Assembly (NCBI GenBank): GCA_016204605.1
Contig: JACQKK010000010.1
Location: 77,549-141,548 of the forward strand
From: Candidatus Lambdaproteobacteria bacterium
GTDB taxonomy: Bacteria > SAR324 > JACQKK01
Direction: 5' to 3'
DNA: 64,000 bases
In this document: positions 2,578 through 59,558 of the stretch, in pieces
Position numbering within the stretch: position 1 is the first letter of the stretch
Layout: each line of letters opens with the position of its first letter
The notes under the pieces: generated by a model
What the model was told of the DNA's origin: nothing
The model's database searches: none
What the model saw: the letters and a program-made list of their open reading frames with translations, nothing else
Program-made: the position numbers and the translations under genes

Positions 2578-3033
2578 ATGAACGATAAGGAGAAAATTGA
2601 CATATTGCTCAAGCAGGCCGAATTCTCTCTAGGCCAATTGCGCTTCCGCCAGCAACAAGAATGGCGCCTCAGTCTTTCCTTCTGGGGGCTCATCGCGGTC
2701 GCTGTCGGATTTTCGTGGATCAACATACCAGGCGTGCCAAAGTTCCCCATCATCCCTCTTTTGCTCTTTGAGGTTTTTGTCTTCGTAACCTACATCGTTG
2801 TGTGGGGGATTGGTATATGGAAAGGCAACTTCTATATTTCAAGAAGAGCCTATCATTACCGAGATGAAGCCTTAAGAATATTGGCAAATCCGAATCACGT
2901 ACTACAGCTATTTCCTTTTTATCCCGACTATAGATTTCCGCGAGCTGTCTGGTATCTGCTTTTTCGGGCACCGTTAACGCAAGTATTTGTAACGTTTCTA
3001 CTTCTTGCAATCAGTTTCTTTATTCTGGTTTAG
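2578..3033 (+). CDS. Hypothetical multi-TM membrane protein encoded on an AT-rich insert
   Basis: ORF 2560/2578..3033 sits in a segment (about 2470-3140) whose GC is far below the ~70% flanks. The product is very hydrophobic with several TM helices. I recognise no family. Confidence 0.45.
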   Translation: MNDKEKIDILLKQAEFSLGQLRFRQQQEWRLSLSFWGLIAVAVGFSWINIPGVPKFPIIPLLLFEVFVFVTYIVVWGIGIWKGNFYISRRAYHYRDEALRILANPNHVLQLFPFYPDYRFPRAVWYLLFRAPLTQVFVTFLLLAISFFILV

Positions 3034-3141
3034 ATGTTGTGCCCATCTGAGACATATCCAAGATGAAGTCGTTCGCATAGTGTAAAAATATTATCTTACC
3101 GATGTTATCAAGCCCCATTATCTTCTTGCAGAGAATGGACG

Positions 3142-4899
3142 ATGCCAAGCGCAAGCTGGGAGACGCTGGAGACCGACGTGCTGGTGCTGGGCAGCGGCGG
3201 GGCGGGGCTGTGCGCAGCTCTGCACATGGCCGACGCTGGGCGCCCGCCGCGGGTGACGCTCGCCGTGAAGGGGCTGTTCGGCAAGTCGGGCTGCACGCGC
3301 ATGGTGCAGGGCGGCTACAACGTGGTGCTCAACCCCAAGGACTCGCTGGAGGCGCACTTCGCCGATACCATCAAGGGCGGCCAATGGATCAACAACCAGG
3401 AGCTGGCCTGGCTGCTGGTGCAGCAGGCGCCGGGGCGCGTGCTGGAGCTGGAGAACCGCGCGGGCTGCTTCTTCGACCGTGACGCCGAGGGCAACGTCCA
3501 CCAAAAGCCCTTCGCCGGGCAGTCCTTCGACCGCACGGTGCACAAGGGCGACCTGACCGGAATCGAGATCATCAACCGCCTGGCCGAGCAGGTGCGCGCC
3601 GCGCCCAACACCACGATTCTCGAAGAGGTGCGCGCCGTCGAGCTGCTGCACGACGCCGCGGGCCAGCGCATCGTGGGCGCGCTGCTGGTGAACCAGCGCA
3701 CGGGGGGGTTCATCTGCGCCCGCGCCAAGGCCACGCTGCTCGCGACGGGCGGCGGGCCGACCATGTACAAGATCTCGGCGCCCTGCCAGGAGAAGTCCTG
3801 CGATGGCATCGCGATGGGCTACCGCGCCGGCGCCACGCTGATGGACATGGAGATGGTGCAGTTCCACCCGACCGGCCTGCTGGTGGCCAACCAGTTGATC
3901 TCCGGCACGGTGCTCGAGGAGGGTCTGCGCGGCGTGGGCGCCCACCTGGTCAACGGCAAGGGCGAGCGCTTCATGCACAAGTACGATCCGCGCGGCGAGC
4001 GGGCCACCCGCGATATCGTCTCCCGCAGCTGCTTCATCGAGGTGATGGAGGGGCGCGGCACGCGGGAGGAGGGCGTGCTGCTCGATGCCTCGCACCTGGG
4101 CGCCGAGTTCGTGCTGAAGAACTTCAAGGGCATGACCTTGCGCTGCCGCGACGTGGGGTACGATCTCACCCGCGAGCCGGTGCCGATCTCCCCCACGGCC
4201 CACTTCATGATGGGCGGCGTGCAGATCGACACCCGCTGCCGCACGGAGCTCGAGGGGCTGTTCGTGGCGGGCGAGGATGCGGCGGGCGTCCATGGCGCCA
4301 ACCGGCTCGGCGGCAACGGCGTGGCCGAATCGACCGTCTTCGGCGGCATCGCGGGCGATGTCATCGCGCGCTGGGTGCTGGAGGCGCCGCTCGTGCCCGT
4401 CGTCGAAGCGGAGCTGCGGGAAGGCATCGCCCGCAGCCTGGCGCCCTTCGCCAACACCGGCACGGGCTCGGTCTATCCCCTGCGCACCCGGCTGCGGGAG
4501 ACCATGTGGCGCAACGCGGGGCTCGTGCGCAGCGAGGCCACCCTGCGCGCGGCCGAGGCCGATCTCGACGACCTCCGCCAGCAGCTCGCACGGGTCGCGC
4601 TGCCCTCAGGGCGCGCCTACAACATGGCCTGGATGGATGCACTGAACCTGGAGAGCTACCTCGACATCTCGGGGGCGATCGTGCGGGCCGCGCTGGCCCG
4701 GCGCGAGAGCCGCGGCTCCCACTTCCGCTCCGACTTCCCGGAGAAGGACGACGCGCACTTTCTCTGCAACCTGCTGCTGACCCGCGACGACCGCGACCCC
4801 ATCCCGCAGGCCATCGACTTCTCCCGCCTCAAGCCGGACCATCCCGACATCTTCAACCGCTTCGACGTGGTGGGCCGCCCGCCGACGAAGGCGCTGTAG
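3142..4899 (+). CDS. sdhA: Succinate dehydrogenase/fumarate reductase flavoprotein subunit
   Basis: 585 aa with an N-terminal GSGGAG FAD-binding fold, HFMMGG, and the RSHFRSDFPEKDD C-terminal region typical of SdhA/FrdA. Confidence 0.9.
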   Translation: MPSASWETLETDVLVLGSGGAGLCAALHMADAGRPPRVTLAVKGLFGKSGCTRMVQGGYNVVLNPKDSLEAHFADTIKGGQWINNQELAWLLVQQAPGRVLELENRAGCFFDRDAEGNVHQKPFAGQSFDRTVHKGDLTGIEIINRLAEQVRAAPNTTILEEVRAVELLHDAAGQRIVGALLVNQRTGGFICARAKATLLATGGGPTMYKISAPCQEKSCDGIAMGYRAGATLMDMEMVQFHPTGLLVANQLISGTVLEEGLRGVGAHLVNGKGERFMHKYDPRGERATRDIVSRSCFIEVMEGRGTREEGVLLDASHLGAEFVLKNFKGMTLRCRDVGYDLTREPVPISPTAHFMMGGVQIDTRCRTELEGLFVAGEDAAGVHGANRLGGNGVAESTVFGGIAGDVIARWVLEAPLVPVVEAELREGIARSLAPFANTGTGSVYPLRTRLRETMWRNAGLVRSEATLRAAEADLDDLRQQLARVALPSGRAYNMAWMDALNLESYLDISGAIVRAALARRESRGSHFRSDFPEKDDAHFLCNLLLTRDDRDPIPQAIDFSRLKPDHPDIFNRFDVVGRPPTKAL

Positions 4900-5429
4900 C
4901 CCCCGGTTCGCATTCCCCGGCAGGCCGATCGGCGCGAACGATCGCGTCCTGCACGAGCACCGAGCTCTCCGCGACGCACGTCCTGGGCGGCGCCCAAGGT
5001 GGCGGCTGGGTGCCACGGCAACCGGCCTCCGGCGACGACTCCACGAGCGGTCGGGATCACGCAAGTCTGCGGCAACGGGCCCTCCGGCGTCGCTCCCGGT
5101 TCGGTCGCAGCAATTCCGCTCAAGTTCGGCGGGAATGGCTGTTGTGGGCTGTTTGCGCCCCATCCCGGTCGAGGATATCCATTGACACCCCTGGACGACC
5201 CGTGTTACTTCCAGTCGCTTCGGGTTTGATGGGGATGGGCGTGGCGCCTGTCCCGCGCGGTGTGCCTCGCCTGGTGCGCCGCGGTGTGGTGAACGATCGC
5301 GCCCGCGCTCTTCCGGTAGGGTACCTGCTCCGCAGGGTACGTTGCACGCCGTTCGCGTGAATCCCGGTTCGGCCCCGCGCATTTGACGACGCCCAAGACG
5401 CCCTCGGGCCAAGACGACCTCGGGTTCGT

Positions 5430-5900: not shown

Positions 5901-6523
5901 AGGAGCGCATGGTGATGAAGACCCGGCACCTTTGGAGGTCGGCGGCCCGCGCTGCGGTCGCACTGGGCGCGGCGCTGTTCACCGTGCTGTGCACTGCACT
6001 GCTGACGGTGCCGGCATGGGCGGCGGAGCAGGCCGGCCATGGCAGTCCGTGGCTGGAACTGCTGTGGAAGACCATCAACTTCGCCGTCCTGATGGGGCTG
6101 CTGATCTACTTCCTGCGCAAGCCGATCGCGGGCTACCTCGCGCGCAGCGCCGGCGAGATGAAGCAGGGCCTCGACGACGCGCGCAGGAGCGCCGCGGAGA
6201 CGGCTGCACAGGTTCTGCAGCAGAAGCGGAACATCGAAGGCATGCAGGCCGAGCTCGAACGGATGGTGGCCGCCGCCAAGGCCGACGCCGCGCTGGAGCT
6301 GCGCCGCATGACCGAGGAGGCCGAGGCCCACGCGACGAAGAGCAAGGCCCAGACGGCGCTCCAGATCGAGCAGGAGGTGCGCAAGGCGCGCCAGGCCCTG
6401 CAAGAGGAGATCGCCGACCAGACCACGCGCATCGCCGAGCGGCTGATCCGTGCGCGCATGACGCCGGAGCGGCAGCAGCGCCTGGTCGCCGGATACGCGC
6501 GCCAGATGGGAGGCCAGCGATGA
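5897..6523 (+). CDS. atpF: F-type ATP synthase subunit b
   Basis: 208 aa with a TM segment plus an Ala/Glu/Arg-rich coiled-coil. It overlaps the upstream stop and is followed by delta. Confidence 0.75.
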   Translation: MKERMVMKTRHLWRSAARAAVALGAALFTVLCTALLTVPAWAAEQAGHGSPWLELLWKTINFAVLMGLLIYFLRKPIAGYLARSAGEMKQGLDDARRSAAETAAQVLQQKRNIEGMQAELERMVAAAKADAALELRRMTEEAEAHATKSKAQTALQIEQEVRKARQALQEEIADQTTRIAERLIRARMTPERQQRLVAGYARQMGGQR

Positions 6524-15855: not shown

Positions 15856-18723
15856 TCAGAAGAATGTAAGCGCCTCGAAGAAGATGAAGCGCTCTTGTTG
15901 ATATTGCCTGTCGTTGAAAGGGATGGAGACTTCGAAGCGCAATGGGAACGCCACATGGCTCAGAACATCAACGTCGAACCCGATTCCCACGCCCACATCT
16001 TGCCGCTGGGGGGCACGGTACGGATTCTCGTCGTTGTTCCACCCCTTGCCGGCGTCGACGGAGAAGATTCCGCTGATCCGCCGCGACTGGAGTGCCGTGC
16101 CGATGATGCGGCGGGTGACGATGTACTGGTACTCAAAACGCATCGCGGCGATCTGGTCGTTGACCAGCGCCACGTCGCGGGGGTAGCCGCGCAGCACGGT
16201 CGGGTCGCCGAGCAGGTGCCGCTTCTGGATCGGCGCGTCGCCATCGGTCAATCCGCGGATCAGATCGAACTTGATGACGTGACGGGGGCCCAGCGTGAAC
16301 GTCTGCGCAAACGCCAGCCGCAGCGAACCGTAGTTGAAGTCGGCATCCAAGGCCTGGGCCGAGTGCTCGTAGGACAGCGTGAATCGTCCGAAGTACTTTT
16401 CGCCGCCGCGGTAGCTGGTCTCATTGGACAGCTCCCAGTTCCCCGAGCGGCCGGGGCGCTGGATCGTGCTGGTCAGTCTGTCGGCTCGCGCGGCCTCGAC
16501 ATGCTCCACATTCGCGGCGATGCCGGTCTGCACGAAGAAGGCCTCCGGGGTCGGATGGCGGAAGTACAGGGCCGCACCCCGGGAGACGCGACCGCCGATC
16601 TGCTCCGCGTTGAGATCGAGCGAGAGCCGCTCGAACAGGAACCGCTTCCGCACCCAGCCGGCCTCGTAGAGCAACCGCTCGCTCTCCTGGCCGTAGCCGG
16701 GAATGAGGCGCACCTCGTTGTCCTCGTCGATCAGGGCGGTGGCGCCGAGACCCACGAAGTTGCCGTCGATGGCGTTGCCGCCCAGGCTGCCCCGCAGCAG
16801 GATCAGCTTTTCGCGCTGCTTCTGCCAATCGAAGAACGGGCGGAACCGGATCAGCGTGTCGGAGCGGTTGTTCTGCCGATCGGTTTCCAGCAGGTACTCC
16901 CCGGGGTCGAGCACGATGCGCTCGACCGGCCCCGCGAGCACGAACCGCAGGGTGGCGGCCTGCTCCTTGCCATCCCAGCGCTGCATGAGCGTTTCCCCGG
17001 TGACGGCGGTGACCTCGACGTCGACCGGCATGATCCCGGCCTCGCGGCGCTCGACCCGCACCTCCACGAGAGTGCTGCCGTCGCGGGGTCGCTGGCTCCA
17101 GCCGGCCAGCGCATAGTCGACGCGGGGGGTGCCGTAGAACCACTCGGCGATGAACCAGTCGATCGGCACGCCGGCGACCTCCGTCATCACCTGCTCGAAC
17201 CCCTGCTCCGTGGCGGCGCGATAGCGGTAGCGGCGGTAGAACTCCCGGATTCCGCGCCGGAACCGCTCTTCGCCGACGATGTGCGACAGCGCTCGCACCA
17301 CGAGCGGCGCCTTCTGGAACAGGCTGATCAGGGCCGAGCGGAAGTGCGGGTACTGGCTCAGCGATACCATCAGCGGGGCATCTTCGCTGGTGGCGATCTG
17401 GCCGCGCACGGCCTGCTCGAAGTAGTGCTCGCGGTAGCGCGGATTCAGCCAGTCCATCAGCCCATGGATGCCGGCGTCCCAGCCATAGAGGTAGGCGTAG
17501 AAATCCAGCGACAAGAACCCGCCCATGCCCAGCGGCAGCCAGGCCTGTCGATCCGAGTTGGCCCACACCTCCTGCCCGAACCAGATTTGCGCCAGCGCCT
17601 GCGAAAGCTTACCGACGAACACCCGGTCGATGATCCGGTTGTTCACGTAGTACAGGGTGGGAATCACGATGATCTGGCCGGCCACTCGGATATCGCCGGG
17701 ATGGGAATCGATCTCGACGAACGTGAGCTCGGGCATTGGCAGGTCTAGCCCGTAGCGCTCGCGCATGAAGAGCAGGAACTCCTCGGCCACGTCGCGGGCC
17801 AGGTTCGATACGCGCCGGTTCCCGTTCCGATAGAACGAGCGCAGCCGGATGCCATCGAAGGTCGATTCCTGCAGCTCCATCGAGTCGATGTGGACGAAGG
17901 GCAGGCTGCGCATCGGCAATGGGTTATCCGGGAGCATCAGCCGCCCGCCCTCTTCGAGCTGCAACGCTGGGCCGCGCCCCGCAACGAGCCACCCGGCCCG
18001 GTCGGCCTGGATCTTGCCTGCGAATTTCCCCGGCGTGGGATCGGCGGGGTCGCGCACCCACTCGCCGTCCCGGAAGTTGAGCAGGGCCGGGTGCCAGTGC
18101 TCGGCGAACACGCCCGTGGTGTTCCAGCCGTCCCAATAGCGTTCGGGCAGGGTGGTGCGGAAAAAGATGCGTACCGCCCTTCCGGTCGTGCCCGGCGTGA
18201 ACTCGACCCGGAGCAGCCCATCGCGGATGGAATACCCCTCGGGCAGCAGCGGATTGGCCCAATACGTGTGGCGCAGCAGACGCCCGTCATCGTCGGTGAC
18301 GGCGAAGATTTCGATCATGCCGAAGCTGAATCCCTCGGGCAGCAACGGGTCGCCCTGTTCGGGCGTCACGAACGAGCGCCCGAACGGAATCGATTCCATG
18401 TTCCGGCGCGGCCCCCGCGGGTCCGATTCCAGGAAGCGGTTCGGCGGAAGGTGAAACCACCACGTGCCGCGCGGACGCGCATCGTTTTCCGCCACCCGCA
18501 CGTCGATGCTGCCGAAGATGGCGCGGCCGGAGCCATCGAGGTGCACATCGATCCGGTAGTCAGGGATCGATTGGGCCAACGCCTGGGGCACGAGCGCATA
18601 CATCGCGATCGAGAGCAGCAGCCAGCCGGGCGCGATCGGCCGCGACCGCCCGCTCGCGGCCGCACCGGGCGCCCGCAGCGACGCCCGGAGGGCCTCGGCC
18701 CGCTCGGTTCGTGCCGGCATCAC
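15856..18723 (-). CDS. Large outer-membrane protein with an N-terminal degenerate M1-peptidase-like region and a C-terminal Omp85/ShlB-type beta-barrel
   Basis: 955 aa with a signal peptide (LLLSIAMYALVPQALAQ). The last ~350 aa have alternating beta-strand patterning, LRGY/GYPRD-like Omp85 motifs and a terminal Phe. The middle region aligns to the M1 zincin and GAMEN segments, but the HEXXH is replaced (LSQALAQIWFGQEVW). Confidence 0.6.
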   Translation of the reverse strand: MMPARTERAEALRASLRAPGAAASGRSRPIAPGWLLLSIAMYALVPQALAQSIPDYRIDVHLDGSGRAIFGSIDVRVAENDARPRGTWWFHLPPNRFLESDPRGPRRNMESIPFGRSFVTPEQGDPLLPEGFSFGMIEIFAVTDDDGRLLRHTYWANPLLPEGYSIRDGLLRVEFTPGTTGRAVRIFFRTTLPERYWDGWNTTGVFAEHWHPALLNFRDGEWVRDPADPTPGKFAGKIQADRAGWLVAGRGPALQLEEGGRLMLPDNPLPMRSLPFVHIDSMELQESTFDGIRLRSFYRNGNRRVSNLARDVAEEFLLFMRERYGLDLPMPELTFVEIDSHPGDIRVAGQIIVIPTLYYVNNRIIDRVFVGKLSQALAQIWFGQEVWANSDRQAWLPLGMGGFLSLDFYAYLYGWDAGIHGLMDWLNPRYREHYFEQAVRGQIATSEDAPLMVSLSQYPHFRSALISLFQKAPLVVRALSHIVGEERFRRGIREFYRRYRYRAATEQGFEQVMTEVAGVPIDWFIAEWFYGTPRVDYALAGWSQRPRDGSTLVEVRVERREAGIMPVDVEVTAVTGETLMQRWDGKEQAATLRFVLAGPVERIVLDPGEYLLETDRQNNRSDTLIRFRPFFDWQKQREKLILLRGSLGGNAIDGNFVGLGATALIDEDNEVRLIPGYGQESERLLYEAGWVRKRFLFERLSLDLNAEQIGGRVSRGAALYFRHPTPEAFFVQTGIAANVEHVEAARADRLTSTIQRPGRSGNWELSNETSYRGGEKYFGRFTLSYEHSAQALDADFNYGSLRLAFAQTFTLGPRHVIKFDLIRGLTDGDAPIQKRHLLGDPTVLRGYPRDVALVNDQIAAMRFEYQYIVTRRIIGTALQSRRISGIFSVDAGKGWNNDENPYRAPQRQDVGVGIGFDVDVLSHVAFPLRFEVSIPFNDRQYQQERFIFFEALTFF

Positions 18724-18901
18724 GACTCGCGCTCCCGCACGCCGCTAGGGCTGGATCGCACCTTCGCACCCGCCCGGTCGCCGCGAGGCCGCCGCGCACT
18801 CGGGCGCCCGCAGCGACCAGTCGCGCTGGAGCGAACATGCGTACACGGCGCCACGGCTGAGTCGCGGCGGATCACGACCGGCTCGGGCACGCTGAGAACG
18901 C

Positions 18902-19210
18902 TCATAGACCGGGATCGCGGTGGGCCAGCATGTCCAGGTACTGCTCCCACTCGACGGGCAGGAGGTACTTCTTCCGGCGGTTGCACTCGCGGCAACAGGG
19001 CACGACGTTCGATTTCGTCGTACGCCCGCCGCGCACGAGCGGCACCACGTGATCCATCGTCAGCTCCCGCACGGGGAAGCGGCGCCGGCAATAGTGGCAG
19101 AGCCCGGCGGCGCGCCGGTTCTTCCACCACTGGGTCTCGCGGAGCTCGCGCGCCTTGCGCTTCTCGCGGCGCAACTGTTCCTCGTCAACCTCGATCGTGA
19201 ACTCTACCAT
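18902..19210 (-). CDS. HNH endonuclease
   Basis: 102 aa from MVEF. CHYCRRRF..DHVVPLVRGGRTTKSNVVPCCRECNRRK is a classic HNH/zinc-finger nuclease motif. Confidence 0.7.
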   Translation of the reverse strand: MVEFTIEVDEEQLRREKRKARELRETQWWKNRRAAGLCHYCRRRFPVRELTMDHVVPLVRGGRTTKSNVVPCCRECNRRKKYLLPVEWEQYLDMLAHRDPGL

Positions 19211-19516
19211 GGGGGATGGATCGAATCCGGCAAGCCAGTGCCACGAACCGCGTCCGTCCGAGCCGGCGGCGGCGCCGCCACCCGGGGGACGCGCACCGCC
19301 CGACCCGATCGGCGGGCCCATCCGCAAGGCCCCCGCCGAGCCCGATCGCGCCGGTCGCCACCACACCAGCCTAGCCCAGCCGGCCGCCGGATGGAATGAG
19401 ACGCCGGGCGACGGCAGCGGGTCAGCTTCGCGGAATCGAGCGGGCCGTCGCCGTGGCCTCAGAGCCTGTGAATCAATCCATGTTCGCCAGCGGTGAGGCC
19501 GCCCTGCAAGGGCGCG

Positions 19517-19600
19517 CTACCCGTTCGTCGTACCGTAGAAGGCCATGGCGTTCCTGCAGACGATCTTCTCGCGGACGCGCTTGGGCCGGTGGCTGCGGGG
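19517..19600 (-). repeat. Direct repeat copy R1 (~85 bp) downstream of the DUF433/DUF5615 module
   Basis: It shares the ...GGCCATGGCGTTCCTGCAGACG.TCTT.TCGCG.ACGCGCTTGGGCCGGTGGC... core with copies at 20399-20500 and 21118-21215. Confidence 0.7.
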
Positions 19601-19619
19601 TGGCGGTTCGGGGGGTGGG

Positions 19620-19997
19620 CTACGCCTCTTCGCCAATCGGCAGCAACCGTACGCGCATGCGGGCTTCATCGAACACGACCACCGCCCCTCGGGTCAGGGG
19701 CTCCTGAACCGCGGGCAGGTTGGCGAGCAGGAGTGCCAGTTGCGCCTCCGGCCGGCGGCTCGTGCCGCGCCGGAACAGGATCAGCGACGGCTTGCGTTCG
19801 TGGCGCAGCGCCAGCAGCCCTCCGAAGTCGGTATCGGCGGAAACGAGGGTACGGCCCTCCGCGGCCGCCCGCGAAAAGATTTCCGCGTCGTCGGCCGCCT
19901 GGAGACCATAGTCCAGCACATGGGCGGCATCGAATCCGTTGCGCCGGAGGCCATCGGCGATGGCCGGCGACAACGCATTGTCCACGAGGAACTTCAC
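19620..19997 (-). CDS. DUF5615-family (PIN-like) putative toxin
   Basis: 125 aa with a GTG start overlapping the upstream stop (GTGA). [11 protein letters not shown].. resembles DUF5615 proteins, which pair with DUF433. Confidence 0.6.
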
Positions 19998-20221
19998 GGG
20001 GCCACGAGCGGCAGCTCGCGTTCACGGACGGCCTCGGCCGCGTAGCGCAGGGCCTCGCGGATGTCCGCCGCCTCCAGGCTCGGATAGGCTCGCAGGATTT
20101 CCGCGTCGGTCATGCCGTCCGCGACCATCGCCACCACCGTCGCGACCGGGATGCGCAATCCCCGCAGGCACGGCATCCCGTCCATCTGGCGGGGATCGAC
20201 GGTGATTCGGGTGAACTTCAT
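19994..20221 (-). CDS. DUF433-family putative antitoxin
   Basis: 75 aa from [10 protein letters not shown]. The sequence ..[40 protein letters not shown] is characteristic of DUF433. Confidence 0.7.
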
Positions 20222-20398
20222 GGGTGCGCCTCCCCAACGGGTTCGCGTCCACCCCATCGTCGCATCGCGGGCGGCATCCCGTCCAGCAGGTGCCCGCGAC
20301 GACGGCGGCCGCCACCACGACAGGGTGACCTGGCGAATCAACCCGAAGCGGGGCGGATGCGGCCCCGAACGCCCAGGCTCGCAGTCCCCCCCTCTACT

Positions 20399-20500
20399 TT
20401 ACCCGTTCTTCAGGCCGTAGCAGGCCATGGCGTTCCTGCAGACGTTCTTGTCGCGCACGCGCTTGGGCCGGTGGCCGCGGAGTGGCGGGTCTGCTACGCT
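20399..20500 (-). repeat. Direct repeat copy R2 downstream of hicA
   Basis: It has the same ~85-bp core as R1 and R3. Confidence 0.7.
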
Positions 20501-20578
20501 GCACCCATGATTCAGGAGATCACCGAGAACCGCGCCGCGCTGGCGGCGCTGTGCCGGCGCTTGCTGCCAGCATTGCCC

Positions 20579-20785
20579 TCAGACCGTTGCGAAGACCGAC
20601 CAGTCGAGTCCCAGTTGGCGCACTGCCGCCCGCACCGTTCCCGCCTTGAGGTCTTTCGAGCCCCAGTCCGGCGCGGCCCGACCGGTTGCGGGATTTAACC
20701 ACTTCCGATGGGAGCCTCCGCCGCGGCGGGGCAACTCCTCGCAGCCCAGGCGACGCAGCCTGCCGGCCGCCTCCCGGTAGGTCAC
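20579..20785 (-). CDS. hicA: HicA mRNA-interferase toxin
   Basis: 68 aa with a GTG start overlapping the hicB stop (GTGA). LRRLGCEELPRRGGGSHRKWLNPATGRAAPDWGSKDLKAGTVRAAVRQLGL matches the HicA/YcfA fold signature. Confidence 0.7.
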   Translation of the reverse strand: MTYREAAGRLRRLGCEELPRRGGGSHRKWLNPATGRAAPDWGSKDLKAGTVRAAVRQLGLDWSVFATV

Positions 20786-21039
20786 CTGCCGCTCCAGAGG
20801 TACTCGAACCAGATCGGCTCCGCCTGAGGATTCTGGCTCAGGTTGCCCGGCAGCGGCCGGGCACGTTCCTCGTAGAGTTCCAGCACCGCCCGCAAGGCAT
20901 CCTGCACGTTTTCCAGCACCGCCTCCAGTGAGTCGCCCTCGGTCACCAGCTCGGGCAGTAAGGGACTGGTGACCGTGTATCCACCCTCTGGTTGGGGCGT
21001 CAACAACAGCGGAATCTTGAGCACGGCATCCATAGGCAT
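20782..21039 (-). CDS. hicB: HicB-family antitoxin (UPF0150-like N-terminal domain only)
   Basis: 85 aa. MPMDAVLKIPLLLTPQPEGGYTVTSPLLPELVTEGDSLEAVLENVQDALRAVLELY is typical of the HicB N-terminal domain. It lies upstream of, and overlaps, hicA. Confidence 0.65.
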   Translation of the reverse strand: MPMDAVLKIPLLLTPQPEGGYTVTSPLLPELVTEGDSLEAVLENVQDALRAVLELYEERARPLPGNLSQNPQAEPIWFEYLWSGR

Positions 21040-21117
21040 CGCTCCGGATCGCGGGTCGCTGCGCGGCTGACCCCCACCATACCACGCGGCGCCCGCCTTC
21101 CGCCTGCCCTCTTCCCG

Positions 21118-21215
21118 CTACCCGTTCTTCAGGCCGTAGCAGGCCGTGGCGTTCTTGCAGGTGATCTTCTCGCGCACGCGCTTGGGCCGGTGGCCGAACT
21201 GCTTCCGGATGGCGC
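21118..21215 (-). repeat. Direct repeat copy R3 between the argJ stop and hicB
   Basis: It has the same ~85-bp core as R1 and R2. Confidence 0.7.
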
Positions 21216-21257
21216 CTGCCGCCAACGCCGGGGGTCAGGGGAAGGGGTCGCAGCCGC

Positions 21258-22442
21258 CTACGTCGTGTAGTAGGCGTTTTCCTTGATGTAGCCCTCGGTG
21301 AGGTCGCAGCCCCAGACGGTCTCCTGGTGGCGGCCATAGCCGAGGCGGATCACGAGCCTGACCTCGGGACGCTGGAGGTAGGCGGAGATGCGGGCGAGCA
21401 GCTCCGGCGACTGGCCCGCCGCCGAGATGGCGAGGGGCGGGCGCTCCTGGCCGAACTCGATGGAGAGCCCCCCGATGGGCACCGGGTGGGCGAACACCTT
21501 GCCGATGGCCATCACGAACCGCCCCCAGTTGGGGTCGGCGCCGTAGAGGGCGGTCTTGACCAGCGGGGAGTTGATGACGGATTTGGCGAACGCCAGCGCG
21601 GCCCTGGCGCTGGGGGCCTCGGCCACGGTGAGCTCGATCAGCTTGGTCGCCCCTTCGCCGTCGCGGGCGATCTCCTGGGCCAGGTAGGCAGTGGCCTCGG
21701 CGAGCGCCGCCTCGAAGGCCGCCGCCGGGACGGCGCCCGCGAGCCCGTTGGCCATCACCACCACCGTGTCGCTGGTCGAGGTGTCGGAATCGACCGAGAG
21801 GCGGTTGAAGGAGCGCGCCACCGTGCGCCGGAGCATGGCCCGCAGGGTGCGCGGGGGCAGCAGGGCGTCGGTGAAGAAGTAGCTGAGCATGGTGGCCAGG
21901 TTGGGCTCGATCATGCCGGCCCCCTTGGCCACCCCCGTCAGCACCGCAGCGCCAATGCGCACCGAGACGGCCTTGGGGCGCGTGTCGGTGGTCATGATGG
22001 CCCGGGCGAACGCCTCCAGGGCCGCGCGATCTCCCGCCAGCGCCCCCGGCACGACCCGGCAGGCGGCTTCGAGCTTCTCGACCGGCAGCGGCACGCCGAT
22101 CACCCCCGTCGAGCTGGGCAGCACCAGGGTGGCGTCGATGCCGAGCGCCGCGGCGAGCTGCTGGCACACCCGGCGGGCATGCTCGATCCCGGTCGCGCCC
22201 GTGGCCACGTTGGCGTTCTTCGAGTTGACGACGATCGCCTGCAGACGCCCGCCCGCGACGTGCTCGCGCCCCACGATCACCGGGGCGCCGGGGAAGTTGT
22301 TGCGGGTGAAGACGGCCGCTGCGGCGCAGGGGCGCTCCGAGAACGCCACCCCGAAATCGAGGCGGTCGTCCTTGATGCCGATGTTCCGGCCCAGCCAGGA
22401 GAACCCTGGCACCGGAAGCAACGGTTCCCTGATGCCGGCCAT
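21258..22442 (-). CDS. argJ: Bifunctional glutamate N-acetyltransferase/amino-acid acetyltransferase
   Basis: 394 aa with ATML autoproteolytic-site context and a C-terminal ..GYIKENAYYTT typical of ArgJ. Confidence 0.9.
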   Translation of the reverse strand: MAGIREPLLPVPGFSWLGRNIGIKDDRLDFGVAFSERPCAAAAVFTRNNFPGAPVIVGREHVAGGRLQAIVVNSKNANVATGATGIEHARRVCQQLAAALGIDATLVLPSSTGVIGVPLPVEKLEAACRVVPGALAGDRAALEAFARAIMTTDTRPKAVSVRIGAAVLTGVAKGAGMIEPNLATMLSYFFTDALLPPRTLRAMLRRTVARSFNRLSVDSDTSTSDTVVVMANGLAGAVPAAAFEAALAEATAYLAQEIARDGEGATKLIELTVAEAPSARAALAFAKSVINSPLVKTALYGADPNWGRFVMAIGKVFAHPVPIGGLSIEFGQERPPLAISAAGQSPELLARISAYLQRPEVRLVIRLGYGRHQETVWGCDLTEGYIKENAYYTT

Positions 22443-23356: not shown

Positions 23357-23450
23357 CGCGACGCCGGCTCGAACGCGGCCGACTCGCACGCGGCGCTCCC
23401 GAACGGGGCGCTCCCGAACGCGGCACCTTCGAACGCGGCGCTTTCGAACG
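23357..23450. repeat. Six imperfect tandem copies of a 15-bp unit (consensus CTCCCGAACGCGGCG) upstream of lpxA
   Basis: I read it directly: GGCTCGAACGCGGCC / GACTCGCACGCGGCG / CTCCCGAACGGGGCG / CTCCCGAACGCGGCA / CCTTCGAACGCGGCG / CTTTCGAACGCCGCA. Confidence 0.7.
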
Positions 23451-58106: not shown

Positions 58107-59558
58107 TCAAATGTTTTCCATAATCTGCGCTTGCCTACGAATTAAGTTCCTTCCAAGAATATAACAGTAAACTGCGGCCTCTTGAAATTCGATTCTCAGA
58201 CCCTCGACTTCGTGTTCCCCATGTACCGATTTTGTCGTAACTTTCGCATGATCCAGGCCAACCCGTGCGCAGAAAGCAATGAGACTCTTCAAGTCTTTTG
58301 TGTTGTCAAAATATCGGTCGCTCCATTTCACTTCAACACACCATCTCACTTCATTACCTTTTTCCAGATCAACAATGTCAACTTCGCCTTCCGATCCTCC
58401 CTTCTTCCAACGAGCATAGTGAATATTATTCATGAAGTTCCCCGCATGAATCCACTGACAAAATATTGCAGTTTCGACTAAGCTCCCAATTTCATCTTCG
58501 ATCTTGACTAGTCCAAATAGGGCTGCGTACATTGATGGATTTGTTAGATAGACTTTGAAGAAATTGATCTTGTTAAATGTTTTGCCATTGTTATCAACTC
58601 TTTTCACAGTCTTGATGAGAAATGCCGCTTCAAGGTATTCGATATATCGCTTGATCGTATTCTTAGACAGCCCTGAAGCTACACTTAAATTTTCAAACGT
58701 AATCTCATTTCCAGTCTGGTACGCGAGGACATAGAATAGACGAGTAAGTTCTTGTACATCATTGATACCATAAAGAGATGGCAAGTCTCGCAGCAAGACC
58801 TTGTCGATGATGTCGCTACGGATGAACCTTTCAGGATTCTTCTGGATAGCTTCACTGAATACGGATTCTGGGAAGCCGCCAAAATTAATGTAACGAATGA
58901 ACTCTCGATTGAGACTCGCAATATCTTTGACTTCAATCCGCCCATGTTTCTTAATTGAAACGAAGTACCTTTCGTGTAAATTTTGCAGGTCTAAAAATTC
59001 ATAGAATGTGAGAGGAGGTAACATGAAGTCTGTAAATCTGCCGGCACCAGACTCCAAACTCTTCATTCTAAGGGCAGCAGCTGCGGAACCCGAAGCAATG
59101 AACTTGGTATGCTTCTCAGTATCCACAAGATGTTTCAGATGTACTTCCCAACCGTTCAAATATTGGATTTCATCGAAAATGACTATGCATCCATTCGTCT
59201 TGTCCTTGTCGGTCACTTCTTTGTAGAGTTTCACCAATTCTTCGAGGCGGAGGCCTTGAAATAGCGGTGTTTCTAAAGGCAAGTAAACAATGTCATGAGG
59301 CTGTTTCCCGGAGTCAATCAGCTTTTGTATGAAATGATGAAGCATTACCGTCTTGCCAACGCGCCTAGGTCCCATAAGGACAACGGCCCGATTGGGTGTA
59401 GTACTGCTGCCAAGAGGGTAGAATAGATCGAAATATCGCCTTTGCTTGTACTTGCGGAGTTCTGGATCGATTGAGGACGTTTGCCAGTGGGGATTCAGAT
59501 CGCGCAGTTTTTTGTGTAGCGTGTCTTGGGGAATTTCTCGGATCACGATACTCTCCAA
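58107..59558 (-). CDS. AAA+ superfamily ATPase of the COG1373 / AAA_14+DUF4143 family, low-GC
   Basis: 483 aa. The Walker A is LMGPRRVGKT and the Walker B region is CIVIFDEIQ. The C-terminal region resembles DUF4143. GC is ~40%. Confidence 0.75.
   Translation of the reverse strand: MESIVIREIPQDTLHKKLRDLNPHWQTSSIDPELRKYKQRRYFDLFYPLGSSTTPNRAVVLMGPRRVGKTVMLHHFIQKLIDSGKQPHDIVYLPLETPLFQGLRLEELVKLYKEVTDKDKTNGCIVIFDEIQYLNGWEVHLKHLVDTEKHTKFIASGSAAAALRMKSLESGAGRFTDFMLPPLTFYEFLDLQNLHERYFVSIKKHGRIEVKDIASLNREFIRYINFGGFPESVFSEAIQKNPERFIRSDIIDKVLLRDLPSLYGINDVQELTRLFYVLAYQTGNEITFENLSVASGLSKNTIKRYIEYLEAAFLIKTVKRVDNNGKTFNKINFFKVYLTNPSMYAALFGLVKIEDEIGSLVETAIFCQWIHAGNFMNNIHYARWKKGGSEGEVDIVDLEKGNEVRWCVEVKWSDRYFDNTKDLKSLIAFCARVGLDHAKVTTKSVHGEHEVEGLRIEFQEAAVYCYILGRNLIRRQAQIMENI

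Follow-up and report, generated by a model that had tools for sequence, protein, structure and literature searches.

Except where integrons, plasmids or large islands are involved, little is understood about how chromosomal toxin-antitoxin (TA) modules move between genomes. The locus analyzed here is located in a 64-kb stretch of DNA of Candidatus Lambdaproteobacteria bacterium, SAR324 lineage (contig JACQKK010000010.1, positions 77,549 to 141,548; the whole stretch of 64,000 nucleotides is hereafter referred to as the window, and coordinates are those of the window unless a different contig is named). Behind the argJ gene of this bacterium, two unrelated TA pairs, each shorter than 1 kb, are stacked at one point and bracketed by copies of one short sequence, which raises the question of how this arrangement came about. 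The explanation that we tentatively favor, as a serious possibility that still falls somewhat short of being probable, is that two small circular cassettes were inserted one after the other, each by a single crossover, at the same short sequence downstream of argJ.

The repeat-bracketed array behind argJ

Read 5' to 3' on the minus strand, the region consists of argJ, the repeat copy R3, a hicB-like/hicA gene pair, the repeat copy R2, a DUF433/DUF5615 gene pair, the repeat copy R1, an HNH endonuclease gene and a gene encoding an M1-peptidase/Omp85 protein. The accessory stretch between argJ and the last of these genes spans 2.3 kb, and every gene is on the minus strand. The features are:

21118-21210, minus strand: repeat copy R3, closest to argJ; the similarity to R1 and R2 spans 21118-21196 (78 nt)
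20399-20505, minus strand: repeat copy R2, between the cassettes; the 92-nt register copy is 20400-20491, with weak extra similarity to R1 up to ~20505
19517-19609, minus strand: repeat copy R1, the distal copy, which starts ~10 nt after the DUF5615 stop codon
22442-21258, minus strand: argJ, the housekeeping gene that precedes the array (Pfam ArgJ, 1.4e-126)
20782-21039, minus strand: hicB-like antitoxin gene (Pfam HicB_lk_antitox, E = 0.0027, below the Pfam cut-off)
20579-20785, minus strand: hicA toxin gene (Pfam HicA_toxin, 1.8e-9); the exact product is called on contig L085 (see below)
19994-20221, minus strand: DUF433 gene, putative antitoxin (Pfam DUF433, 2.3e-23); the exact product is found in three samples
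19620-19997, minus strand: DUF5615 PIN-like gene, putative toxin (Pfam DUF5615, 7.3e-24, and PIN_10)
19624-20287, minus strand: TA module proper of cassette B (DUF433/DUF5615), comprising 66 nt of upstream/promoter region and both genes, as shared with contig L087 (see below)
18902-19210, minus strand: free-standing HNH endonuclease gene, 102 aa (Pfam HNH, 4.4e-14)

The initial annotation of this DNA, made by inspection of the letters, described three conserved direct repeat copies that separate argJ, hicBA, DUF433/DUF5615 and the HNH gene, and this description was confirmed by repeat finding, self-BLAST and nhmmer. The copies form a single family with 78-92 nt of shared sequence, have the same orientation and all are located within 1.7 kb. 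By repeat finding, they are located at 19518-19609, 20400-20491 and 21119-21210, with 88% identity to the first copy for the second and 76% over 92 nt for the third, and with copy spacings of 719 and 882 nt; the self-BLAST identities are 88% over 92 nt for R1-R2, 92% over 78 nt for R2-R3 and 87% over 79 nt for R1-R3. In the search with an nhmmer profile, each copy is detected with E ~1e-27 and the next best match in the window is not below E = 0.27, and sub-patterns of 19 and 27 nt match just three places in the 64 kb (0.17 and 0.00 matches, respectively, are expected). The copy counts, here and below, cover the 64-kb window and 80 related loci (1.27 Mb).

Within the left core of 51 nt, the three copies are roughly equidistant (45-47/51 identical). 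At the 3' end, R2 and R3 are identical in 27 of 28 positions, and the 3' 28 nt of R1 (22-23/28 identical) are the most divergent segment of the family. At the 5' end, R1 and R2 have ~14 extra bases, 12 of the 14 identical, that are missing in R3; the 57 nt upstream of the shared 78-nt part of R3 are unique, and a 43-nt gap separates argJ from this copy. The sequences that flank the copies on either side are unrelated, and no larger duplicated unit is visible.

The array is reproduced in Logan contigs from three runs, reached through the DUF5615 cluster of 99% identity, and therefore is no assembly artefact. Contig L085 (SRR12113384) corresponds to window positions 21317-15765 at 99.98% identity and includes the 3' end of argJ, R3, R2, R1, the HNH gene and the peptidase gene; L084 (SRR12113383) corresponds to 20497-10881 (99.97%) and L086 (SRR12113420) to 20672-19739 (99.9%). 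Wherever it is seen across these three overlapping samples, the array is invariant. The start of L084 (20497) lies near the 5' end of the R1-R2 similarity, and L085 and L086 read through this position; as read from the repeat alignment, no 31-mer common to the copies exists at which a de Bruijn assembly would be interrupted, the end point could reflect low coverage or a population variant, and we draw no conclusion from it. The hicA gene is incompletely assembled in the SRR12113383 sample.

The gene identities proposed in the initial annotation and the 4-nt (GTGA) overlap within both gene pairs agree with Pfam and with independent gene calls on L085, where Logan gene calling starts the hicB-like gene at 21033 (83 aa). 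As judged from sequence, hicBA and DUF433/DUF5615 are adjacent, overlapping small genes that appear to fit type II TA families. The HNH gene, at most a candidate third cassette, matches NCBIfam and PADLOC models at the domain level only; it starts 306 nt after R1, and no repeat copy is found beyond it. The GC content at third codon positions is 0.79-0.85 in the cassette genes vs 0.88-0.95 in the adjoining housekeeping genes, and DUF5615 has 4335 homologues at E <= 1e-20, with homologues of 70-76% identity across many phyla; because of these two features, the cassette genes look acquired.

Proposed serial insertion of two cassettes

Each gene pair is enclosed by direct, co-oriented copies, as expected after a single crossover between a circular molecule and a chromosomal site, and this geometry supports the serial insertion of two cassettes. 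The ~80-bp sequence directly downstream of argJ would have been the insertion site for two successive Campbell-type single crossovers, with each incoming circle, ~0.72 kb in the case of hicBA and ~0.88 kb in the case of DUF433/DUF5615, carrying its own repeat copy. A single crossover would leave a repeat copy on each side of the insert, such that R3 would represent the left junction, R2 the inter-cassette junction and R1 the right junction. The crossovers might be the work of a site-specific recombinase whose gene lies elsewhere or has been lost, or might have occurred through homology-dependent recombination. What we infer in this scenario is that the repeats mark the junctions of recombination, that circles were the intermediates, and in which order the events took place. 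The unequal extent and variable positions of the copies resemble those of junction copies and, together with an apparent attL/attR mosaic, are suggestive of such an origin. Because the copies differ by 8-13% and have no identical run longer than ~27 nt (the longest run common to the copies in the in-register alignment), the array would be effectively frozen.

The DUF433/DUF5615 module has a homologue on an unrelated metagenome contig (L087), which is 82% identical at the nucleotide level to window positions 20287-19624. The repeat is absent from this contig over 315 nt upstream and 160 nt downstream of the module, and the flanks are unrelated. Hence the repeat belongs to the locus or to the carrier of the module, not to the TA module. 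In the insertion scenario, it would have no role in the working of the TA systems themselves.

The ArgJ protein is closest (73% aa identity) to those from metagenome-assembled genomes labelled SAR324 or Lambdaproteobacteria. The nearest relative found is a 2.35-kb contig from the Joint Genome Institute (JGI) collection (L082, from JGI 3300036766), in which lpxA-argJ matches the window at 90% nucleotide identity and the homology detected by blastn ends at window position 21254, 4 nt past the argJ stop codon. The 204-nt tail of this contig resembles nothing in the window, contains no repeat and, by eye, starts with a hairpin-forming inverted repeat in the place of R3. In twelve relatives at a greater distance, lpxA-argJ is conserved but leads into a DsbA-like gene and mreB, with no TA, HNH or repeat; in all 80 related loci that were retrieved, the vicinity of argJ is free of the repeat, of the TA pairs, of the HNH gene and of the peptidase gene. 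This absence, combined with the break in L082, points to the position after argJ as a lineage-specific breakpoint. The comparison of argJ loci, which the initial annotation had advised, thus found the repeat and the cassettes missing in 80 related loci but recovered no clean empty site: the L082 contig ends 204 nt after argJ, and the distant relatives lack downstream synteny. The serial cassette capture proposed there is sustained by the layout, the repeat-free module of L087 and the break after the argJ stop codon, but not in its integron attC-like form.

A DUF433/DUF5615 pair between direct repeats is found also in an unrelated genome, on L088 (ENA ERZ25039557 contig_45706), the one long contig with a DUF5615 homologue and retrievable DNA. 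In the region 2883-5145 of this contig, the pair (3783-4378) is located between two ~765-nt copies that are 81-89% identical. The upstream (left) copy comprises the 3'-terminal two-thirds of an intact gene for a 328-aa protein of unknown family, and the downstream (right) copy is frame-shifted and begins 4 nt past the toxin stop codon. A third, partial copy is present at 6197-6407, an ERF-like gene is nearby, and the region may be a prophage or another mobile region. L088 can be viewed as an analogue of an insertion that leaves a duplicated piece of the neighbouring gene: in both cases, the TA pair lies between diverged direct copies and the downstream copy begins a few bases past the toxin stop codon. 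Unlike the array behind argJ, however, L088 involves a 765-nt copy of the 3' part of an intact gene, compared to 80-100 nt without a recognizable parent here, and in the array two different cassettes would have used one sequence.

In plasmid pPg_03 of Pseudanabaena galeata (L092), a 108-nt direct repeat (90% identity; 2597-2704 and 3903-4010) flanks the DUF433/DUF5615 pair, with the downstream copy inside a hypothetical gene on the opposite strand. Flanking repeats are absent at four other plasmid loci and in the short L087. A general rule of flanking repeats around DUF433/DUF5615 was rejected because, among seven other loci, only L088 and the Pseudanabaena plasmid display them.

These plasmid records show additional features of the DUF433/DUF5615 family. 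Plasmids of Xylella, Bradyrhizobium, Fukatsuia and Fervidibacter (L089, L090, L091 and L093, respectively) carry the pair near recombinase genes. A serine recombinase or tyrosine integrase gene directly follows the pair (0-190 nt) in three of the five plasmid records, and in a fourth an integrase gene is found within 1 kb. The plasmid pairs often occur in tandem with other TA pairs (RelE, BrnTA, Phd/VapC).

Several results weigh against the serial insertion of two cassettes. No gene can be named as the target that supplied the repeat, given the short R3 frame and a peptide without homologues, and the status of the repeat as an attachment site rests on one locus because no other copy was found elsewhere. 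Pfam models of Phage_integrase, resolvase and transposase have no matches among ~48 open reading frames (ORFs) scanned across the 64-kb window, which extends to these ORFs the earlier statement that the array contains no integrase. A permutation test on the 79-nt core gave no significant left/right split of the substitutions specific to single copies (p = 0.33 by site and 0.86 by event), and p = 0.013 is reached only once the unequal 5' extension is included; the mosaic, although compatible with the insertion scenario, was accordingly discarded as proof of a site-specific crossover. In the three samples with the locus, neither an empty site nor alternative cassette content nor a circular junction was seen. 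Finally, the L088 analogue is a single case, and five plasmid-borne modules gave one further flanking repeat.

If the repeats are insertion scars, the locus would illustrate a simple route of TA spread, via short flanking homology or an attachment sequence and a single crossover, with the insertion stabilized by repeat divergence. Coming from one genome, with no enzyme and no dynamics, the array is of modest interest and is a pointer for a targeted survey more than a discovery.

Open frames in the repeat

Each of the three copies contains, on the minus strand, the open frame ...GHRPKRVREKIxCxNAxACYGLKNG*, whose stop codon, changed from TAG to TAA in R2, marks the exact end of the similarity among all copies. 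That this frame ends at the stop codon in every copy first suggested a duplicated gene end, and copies that end in this manner look like the product of elements that insert into the 3' end of a gene and provide a replacement end. The remnant gene 3' end envisaged in the initial annotation is nevertheless unproven: the profile of the three peptide sequences yielded one word-sharing candidate and no scoring match in a word index of 5.8 billion proteins, and the 30-column profile yielded no matches in a full HMMER search of 1.84 billion representatives. Nor did Pfam, NCBIfam or PADLOC give any match for the repeat ORFs.

The gene next to argJ on its downstream side in relatives is DsbA-like (HCCA-isomerase-type) and has the same orientation, with mreB after it (L002:5892-6497, L003:8777-9382 and nine other loci). 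The DsbA-like protein of the two GTDB genomes most closely related to this one terminates in ...K(P/T)KNG*, the last residues being the same as in the repeat peptide. The origin of the repeat as a relic of the 3' end of the DsbA-like gene was considered and is unsupported, the Smith-Waterman DNA alignment being no better than shuffles (z <= 1.8).

Alternatively, the repeat might encode a product, namely the basic peptide of the minus strand, a peptide of the plus strand (MAFLQTIFSRTRLGRW...) or a small RNA, that was copied as a third component beside each module. No copy interrupts either frame, the boundary of the repeat coincides with the end of the minus frame and its TAG to TAA replacement, and the plus frame, which looks as plausible as the minus frame, keeps its start codon as ATG or GTG and, in the shared MAFLQ...GRW segment, shows two synonymous changes, the others being hydrophobic swaps. 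However, the plus-strand frames diverge downstream, resulting in ORFs of ~27, 46 and 166 codons with unrelated tails. The minus frame has no usable start in R2 and in R3 is only 35 codons long, with a TTG start and no visible Shine-Dalgarno sequence; thus, the open frame noticed in the initial annotation exists in all copies but without a start in R2 and with only TTG in R3. A codon reading of the alignment shows that the minus-frame substitutions are mostly non-synonymous. Given also that there are no protein homologues, no fold signal and no promoter-like sites at the repeat, and that the homologous TA module in L087 lacks the repeat, an encoded product appears very unlikely, and no repeat copy is demonstrably an expressed gene.

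Tests for integron sites, folds and recombination motifs

The attC sites of integrons are defined by paired RYYYAAC/GTTRRRY cores (R''/R') and an imperfect hairpin. If the array were an integron cassette array without an integrase (CALIN), the repeats would be attC sites that act as folded single strands, with IntI encoded elsewhere. The layout has obvious similarities to such arrays: cassettes of 0.7-0.9 kb all point in one direction, each is followed by a conserved site, and as geometry at least two sites within ~4 kb separate short co-oriented cassettes. The TA content also fits the sedentary chromosomal integrons, of which TA cassettes are typical (e.g., bioRxiv 10.1101/2022.08.03.502626). 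However, both strands of 18801-21300 lack a RYYYAAC...GTTRRRY pair 40-150 nt apart, the longest perfect stem inside any repeat copy measures 5 bp, and no intI was found among the window ORFs scanned. The structure prediction advised in the initial annotation gave folds no more stable than those of dinucleotide-shuffled sequences, for DNA on both strands (z = +0.22 to +1.66) as well as for RNA (z = 0.06-1.43). Because there is no core pair, no long stem and no fold better than shuffles, the repeats are not attC sites. The integron cassette array is therefore ruled out on motif and fold, with the likeness limited to the layout, and we regard this explanation, and with it the attC-like character suggested initially, as effectively refuted. 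The short GGCC-N6-GGCC hairpin that was noticed at the same time is present as a palindrome in R2 and R3 but not in R1, which has TACC...GGCC instead.

Other known targets and motifs were not detected either. No tRNA or tmRNA target was found, and a partly degenerate E. coli dif 28-mer with <=3 mismatches is absent from the window, which is a weak test for a distant GC-rich lineage. No promoter-like sites were found at the repeat, and no Rfam family reaches the gathering score. A match of R2 (20399-20451, minus strand) to the algC motif (RF02929) scores 21.5 bits vs a cut-off of 33.8, reflects sequence only (...GCCUGAAnAAnGGGUAA) and probably is due to chance; in the same search, R1 and R3 fail to reach E = 1.

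Dispersed repeat or local duplication as alternatives

The three copies might belong to a dispersed, lineage-specific intergenic repeat, akin to repetitive extragenic palindromic (REP) sequences, bacterial interspersed mosaic elements (BIMEs) or miniature inverted-repeat transposable elements (MITEs), or to a family-specific landing pad, with the TA modules inserted among pre-existing copies; the copies would then mark a permissive intergenic hot spot rather than recombination junctions. The location of all copies in intergenic DNA, directly past stop codons, and the lack of protein homologues or an Rfam family are compatible with this possibility, a main rival of the serial insertion that we nevertheless consider doubtful, given that all copies in the 64 kb fall inside 1.7 kb, with none elsewhere in the window and none in the 1.27 Mb of related loci. 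In wider searches, a 22-mer from the repeat has no matches in viral contigs or in 185,579 species genomes, such that the search for further copies advised in the initial annotation gave none there, and its only match in JGI metagenomes appears to be a chance one, located inside an unrelated gene of a different organism and not extending past the pattern. Comparison of the whole array to plasmids and phages with blastn produced nothing. Against a dispersed repeat, no called protein contains the peptide in a collection that includes Logan assemblies of samples with this organism. Furthermore, unlike REP, enterobacterial repetitive intergenic consensus (ERIC), BOX and Correia elements, the repeat has no palindrome or stable fold, and no terminal inverted repeats were found for its copies.

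Rather unlikely, too, is a neutral local duplication, in which unequal crossing-over or replication slippage duplicated a segment on the 3' flank and the genes arrived or were replaced independently. The absence of a significant core mosaic (p = 0.33-0.86), the roughly equal distances among the copies in the 51-nt left core and the unchanged array across three samples all are in line with duplication. On the other hand, two different TA modules would have to land precisely between copies, the flanks around each copy are unrelated and form no larger duplicated unit, and the repeat edges abut the ends of cassette genes, as in the case of R1 and the DUF5615 stop codon.

Comparison with known systems

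With regard to known systems, the serial insertion of two cassettes invites comparison with accretion at attachment sites. Elements that lack an integrase can accrete there in tandem, as cis-mobilizable elements (CIMEs) and as islets integrated beside integrative and conjugative elements (ICEs) or integrative and mobilizable elements (IMEs) (reviewed in PMC5704250). The array resembles CIME-like accretion in that direct repeats are found to the left of, between and to the right of segments without an integrase of their own, the repeat stops at a stop codon, much as the 3' end of a duplicated gene would, and the site directly follows a housekeeping gene. It differs in that the elements are only 0.7-0.9 kb in size and consist of a TA pair only, neither a target gene nor a cognate integrase nor a related ICE/IME can be recognized, and the site is known from one genome. 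Sedentary integrons and CALINs also consist of iterated units of one or more genes and a ~80-100 bp site, are co-oriented and TA-rich and, like the array, can have no adjoining integrase; in contrast to these, the array has no attC hairpin, RYYYAAC/GTTRRRY cores or extrahelical-base architecture, its sites are less structured than shuffled sequences, and it comprises two cassettes only. The pdif modules of Acinetobacter plasmids are small, XerC/XerD-dependent and often consist of TA pairs, with 28-bp dif-like sites in alternating orientation. The array would be similar to these in that small TA modules lie between short recombination sites and depend for their movement on a recombinase that the host supplies from another locus, whereas the repeats described here are 80-100 bp in length and all direct, and no dif-like match was obtained in the window. 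Compared to REP-, BIME- and MITE-like repeats, the present sequence has no palindrome, stem-loop unit or terminal inverted repeats.

The array is at best a variation on known att-site accretion. It is conceivable, although improbable, that the repeat is the site of an unrecognized cassette-capture system, one that would use a double-stranded, non-hairpin site of ~80-100 bp and a recombinase with its gene at another place in the genome. In a SAR324-related lineage, this system would pile up small TA/defence cassettes behind a housekeeping gene and would be integron-like in function, with a mechanism unrelated to attC/IntI.

Surroundings of the array

The rest of the window encodes housekeeping functions, including fumarase, succinate dehydrogenase/fumarate reductase, ATP synthase, apt, miaA, mrdB-type genes, a murein ligase and a dapF-like gene. 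The 955-aa protein encoded next to the HNH gene (15856-18723, minus strand) joins, in an unusual fusion, a C-terminal Omp85-type domain (residues 766-948) to an M1-peptidase domain (311-528), and no homologue of this protein is found near argJ in any of the 80 related loci. A lone ATPase with AAA_14 and DUF4143 domains (58107-59558, minus strand), embedded in housekeeping surroundings, matches the PADLOC candidate defence family PDC-S01 (E = 7e-58). Finally, a tandem array of ~5 copies of a 15-nt unit (CGAACGCGGCnCnnC-like) is located at 23370-23450, around the start of the lpxA-like gene and near a divergent gene for a GGDEF response regulator.

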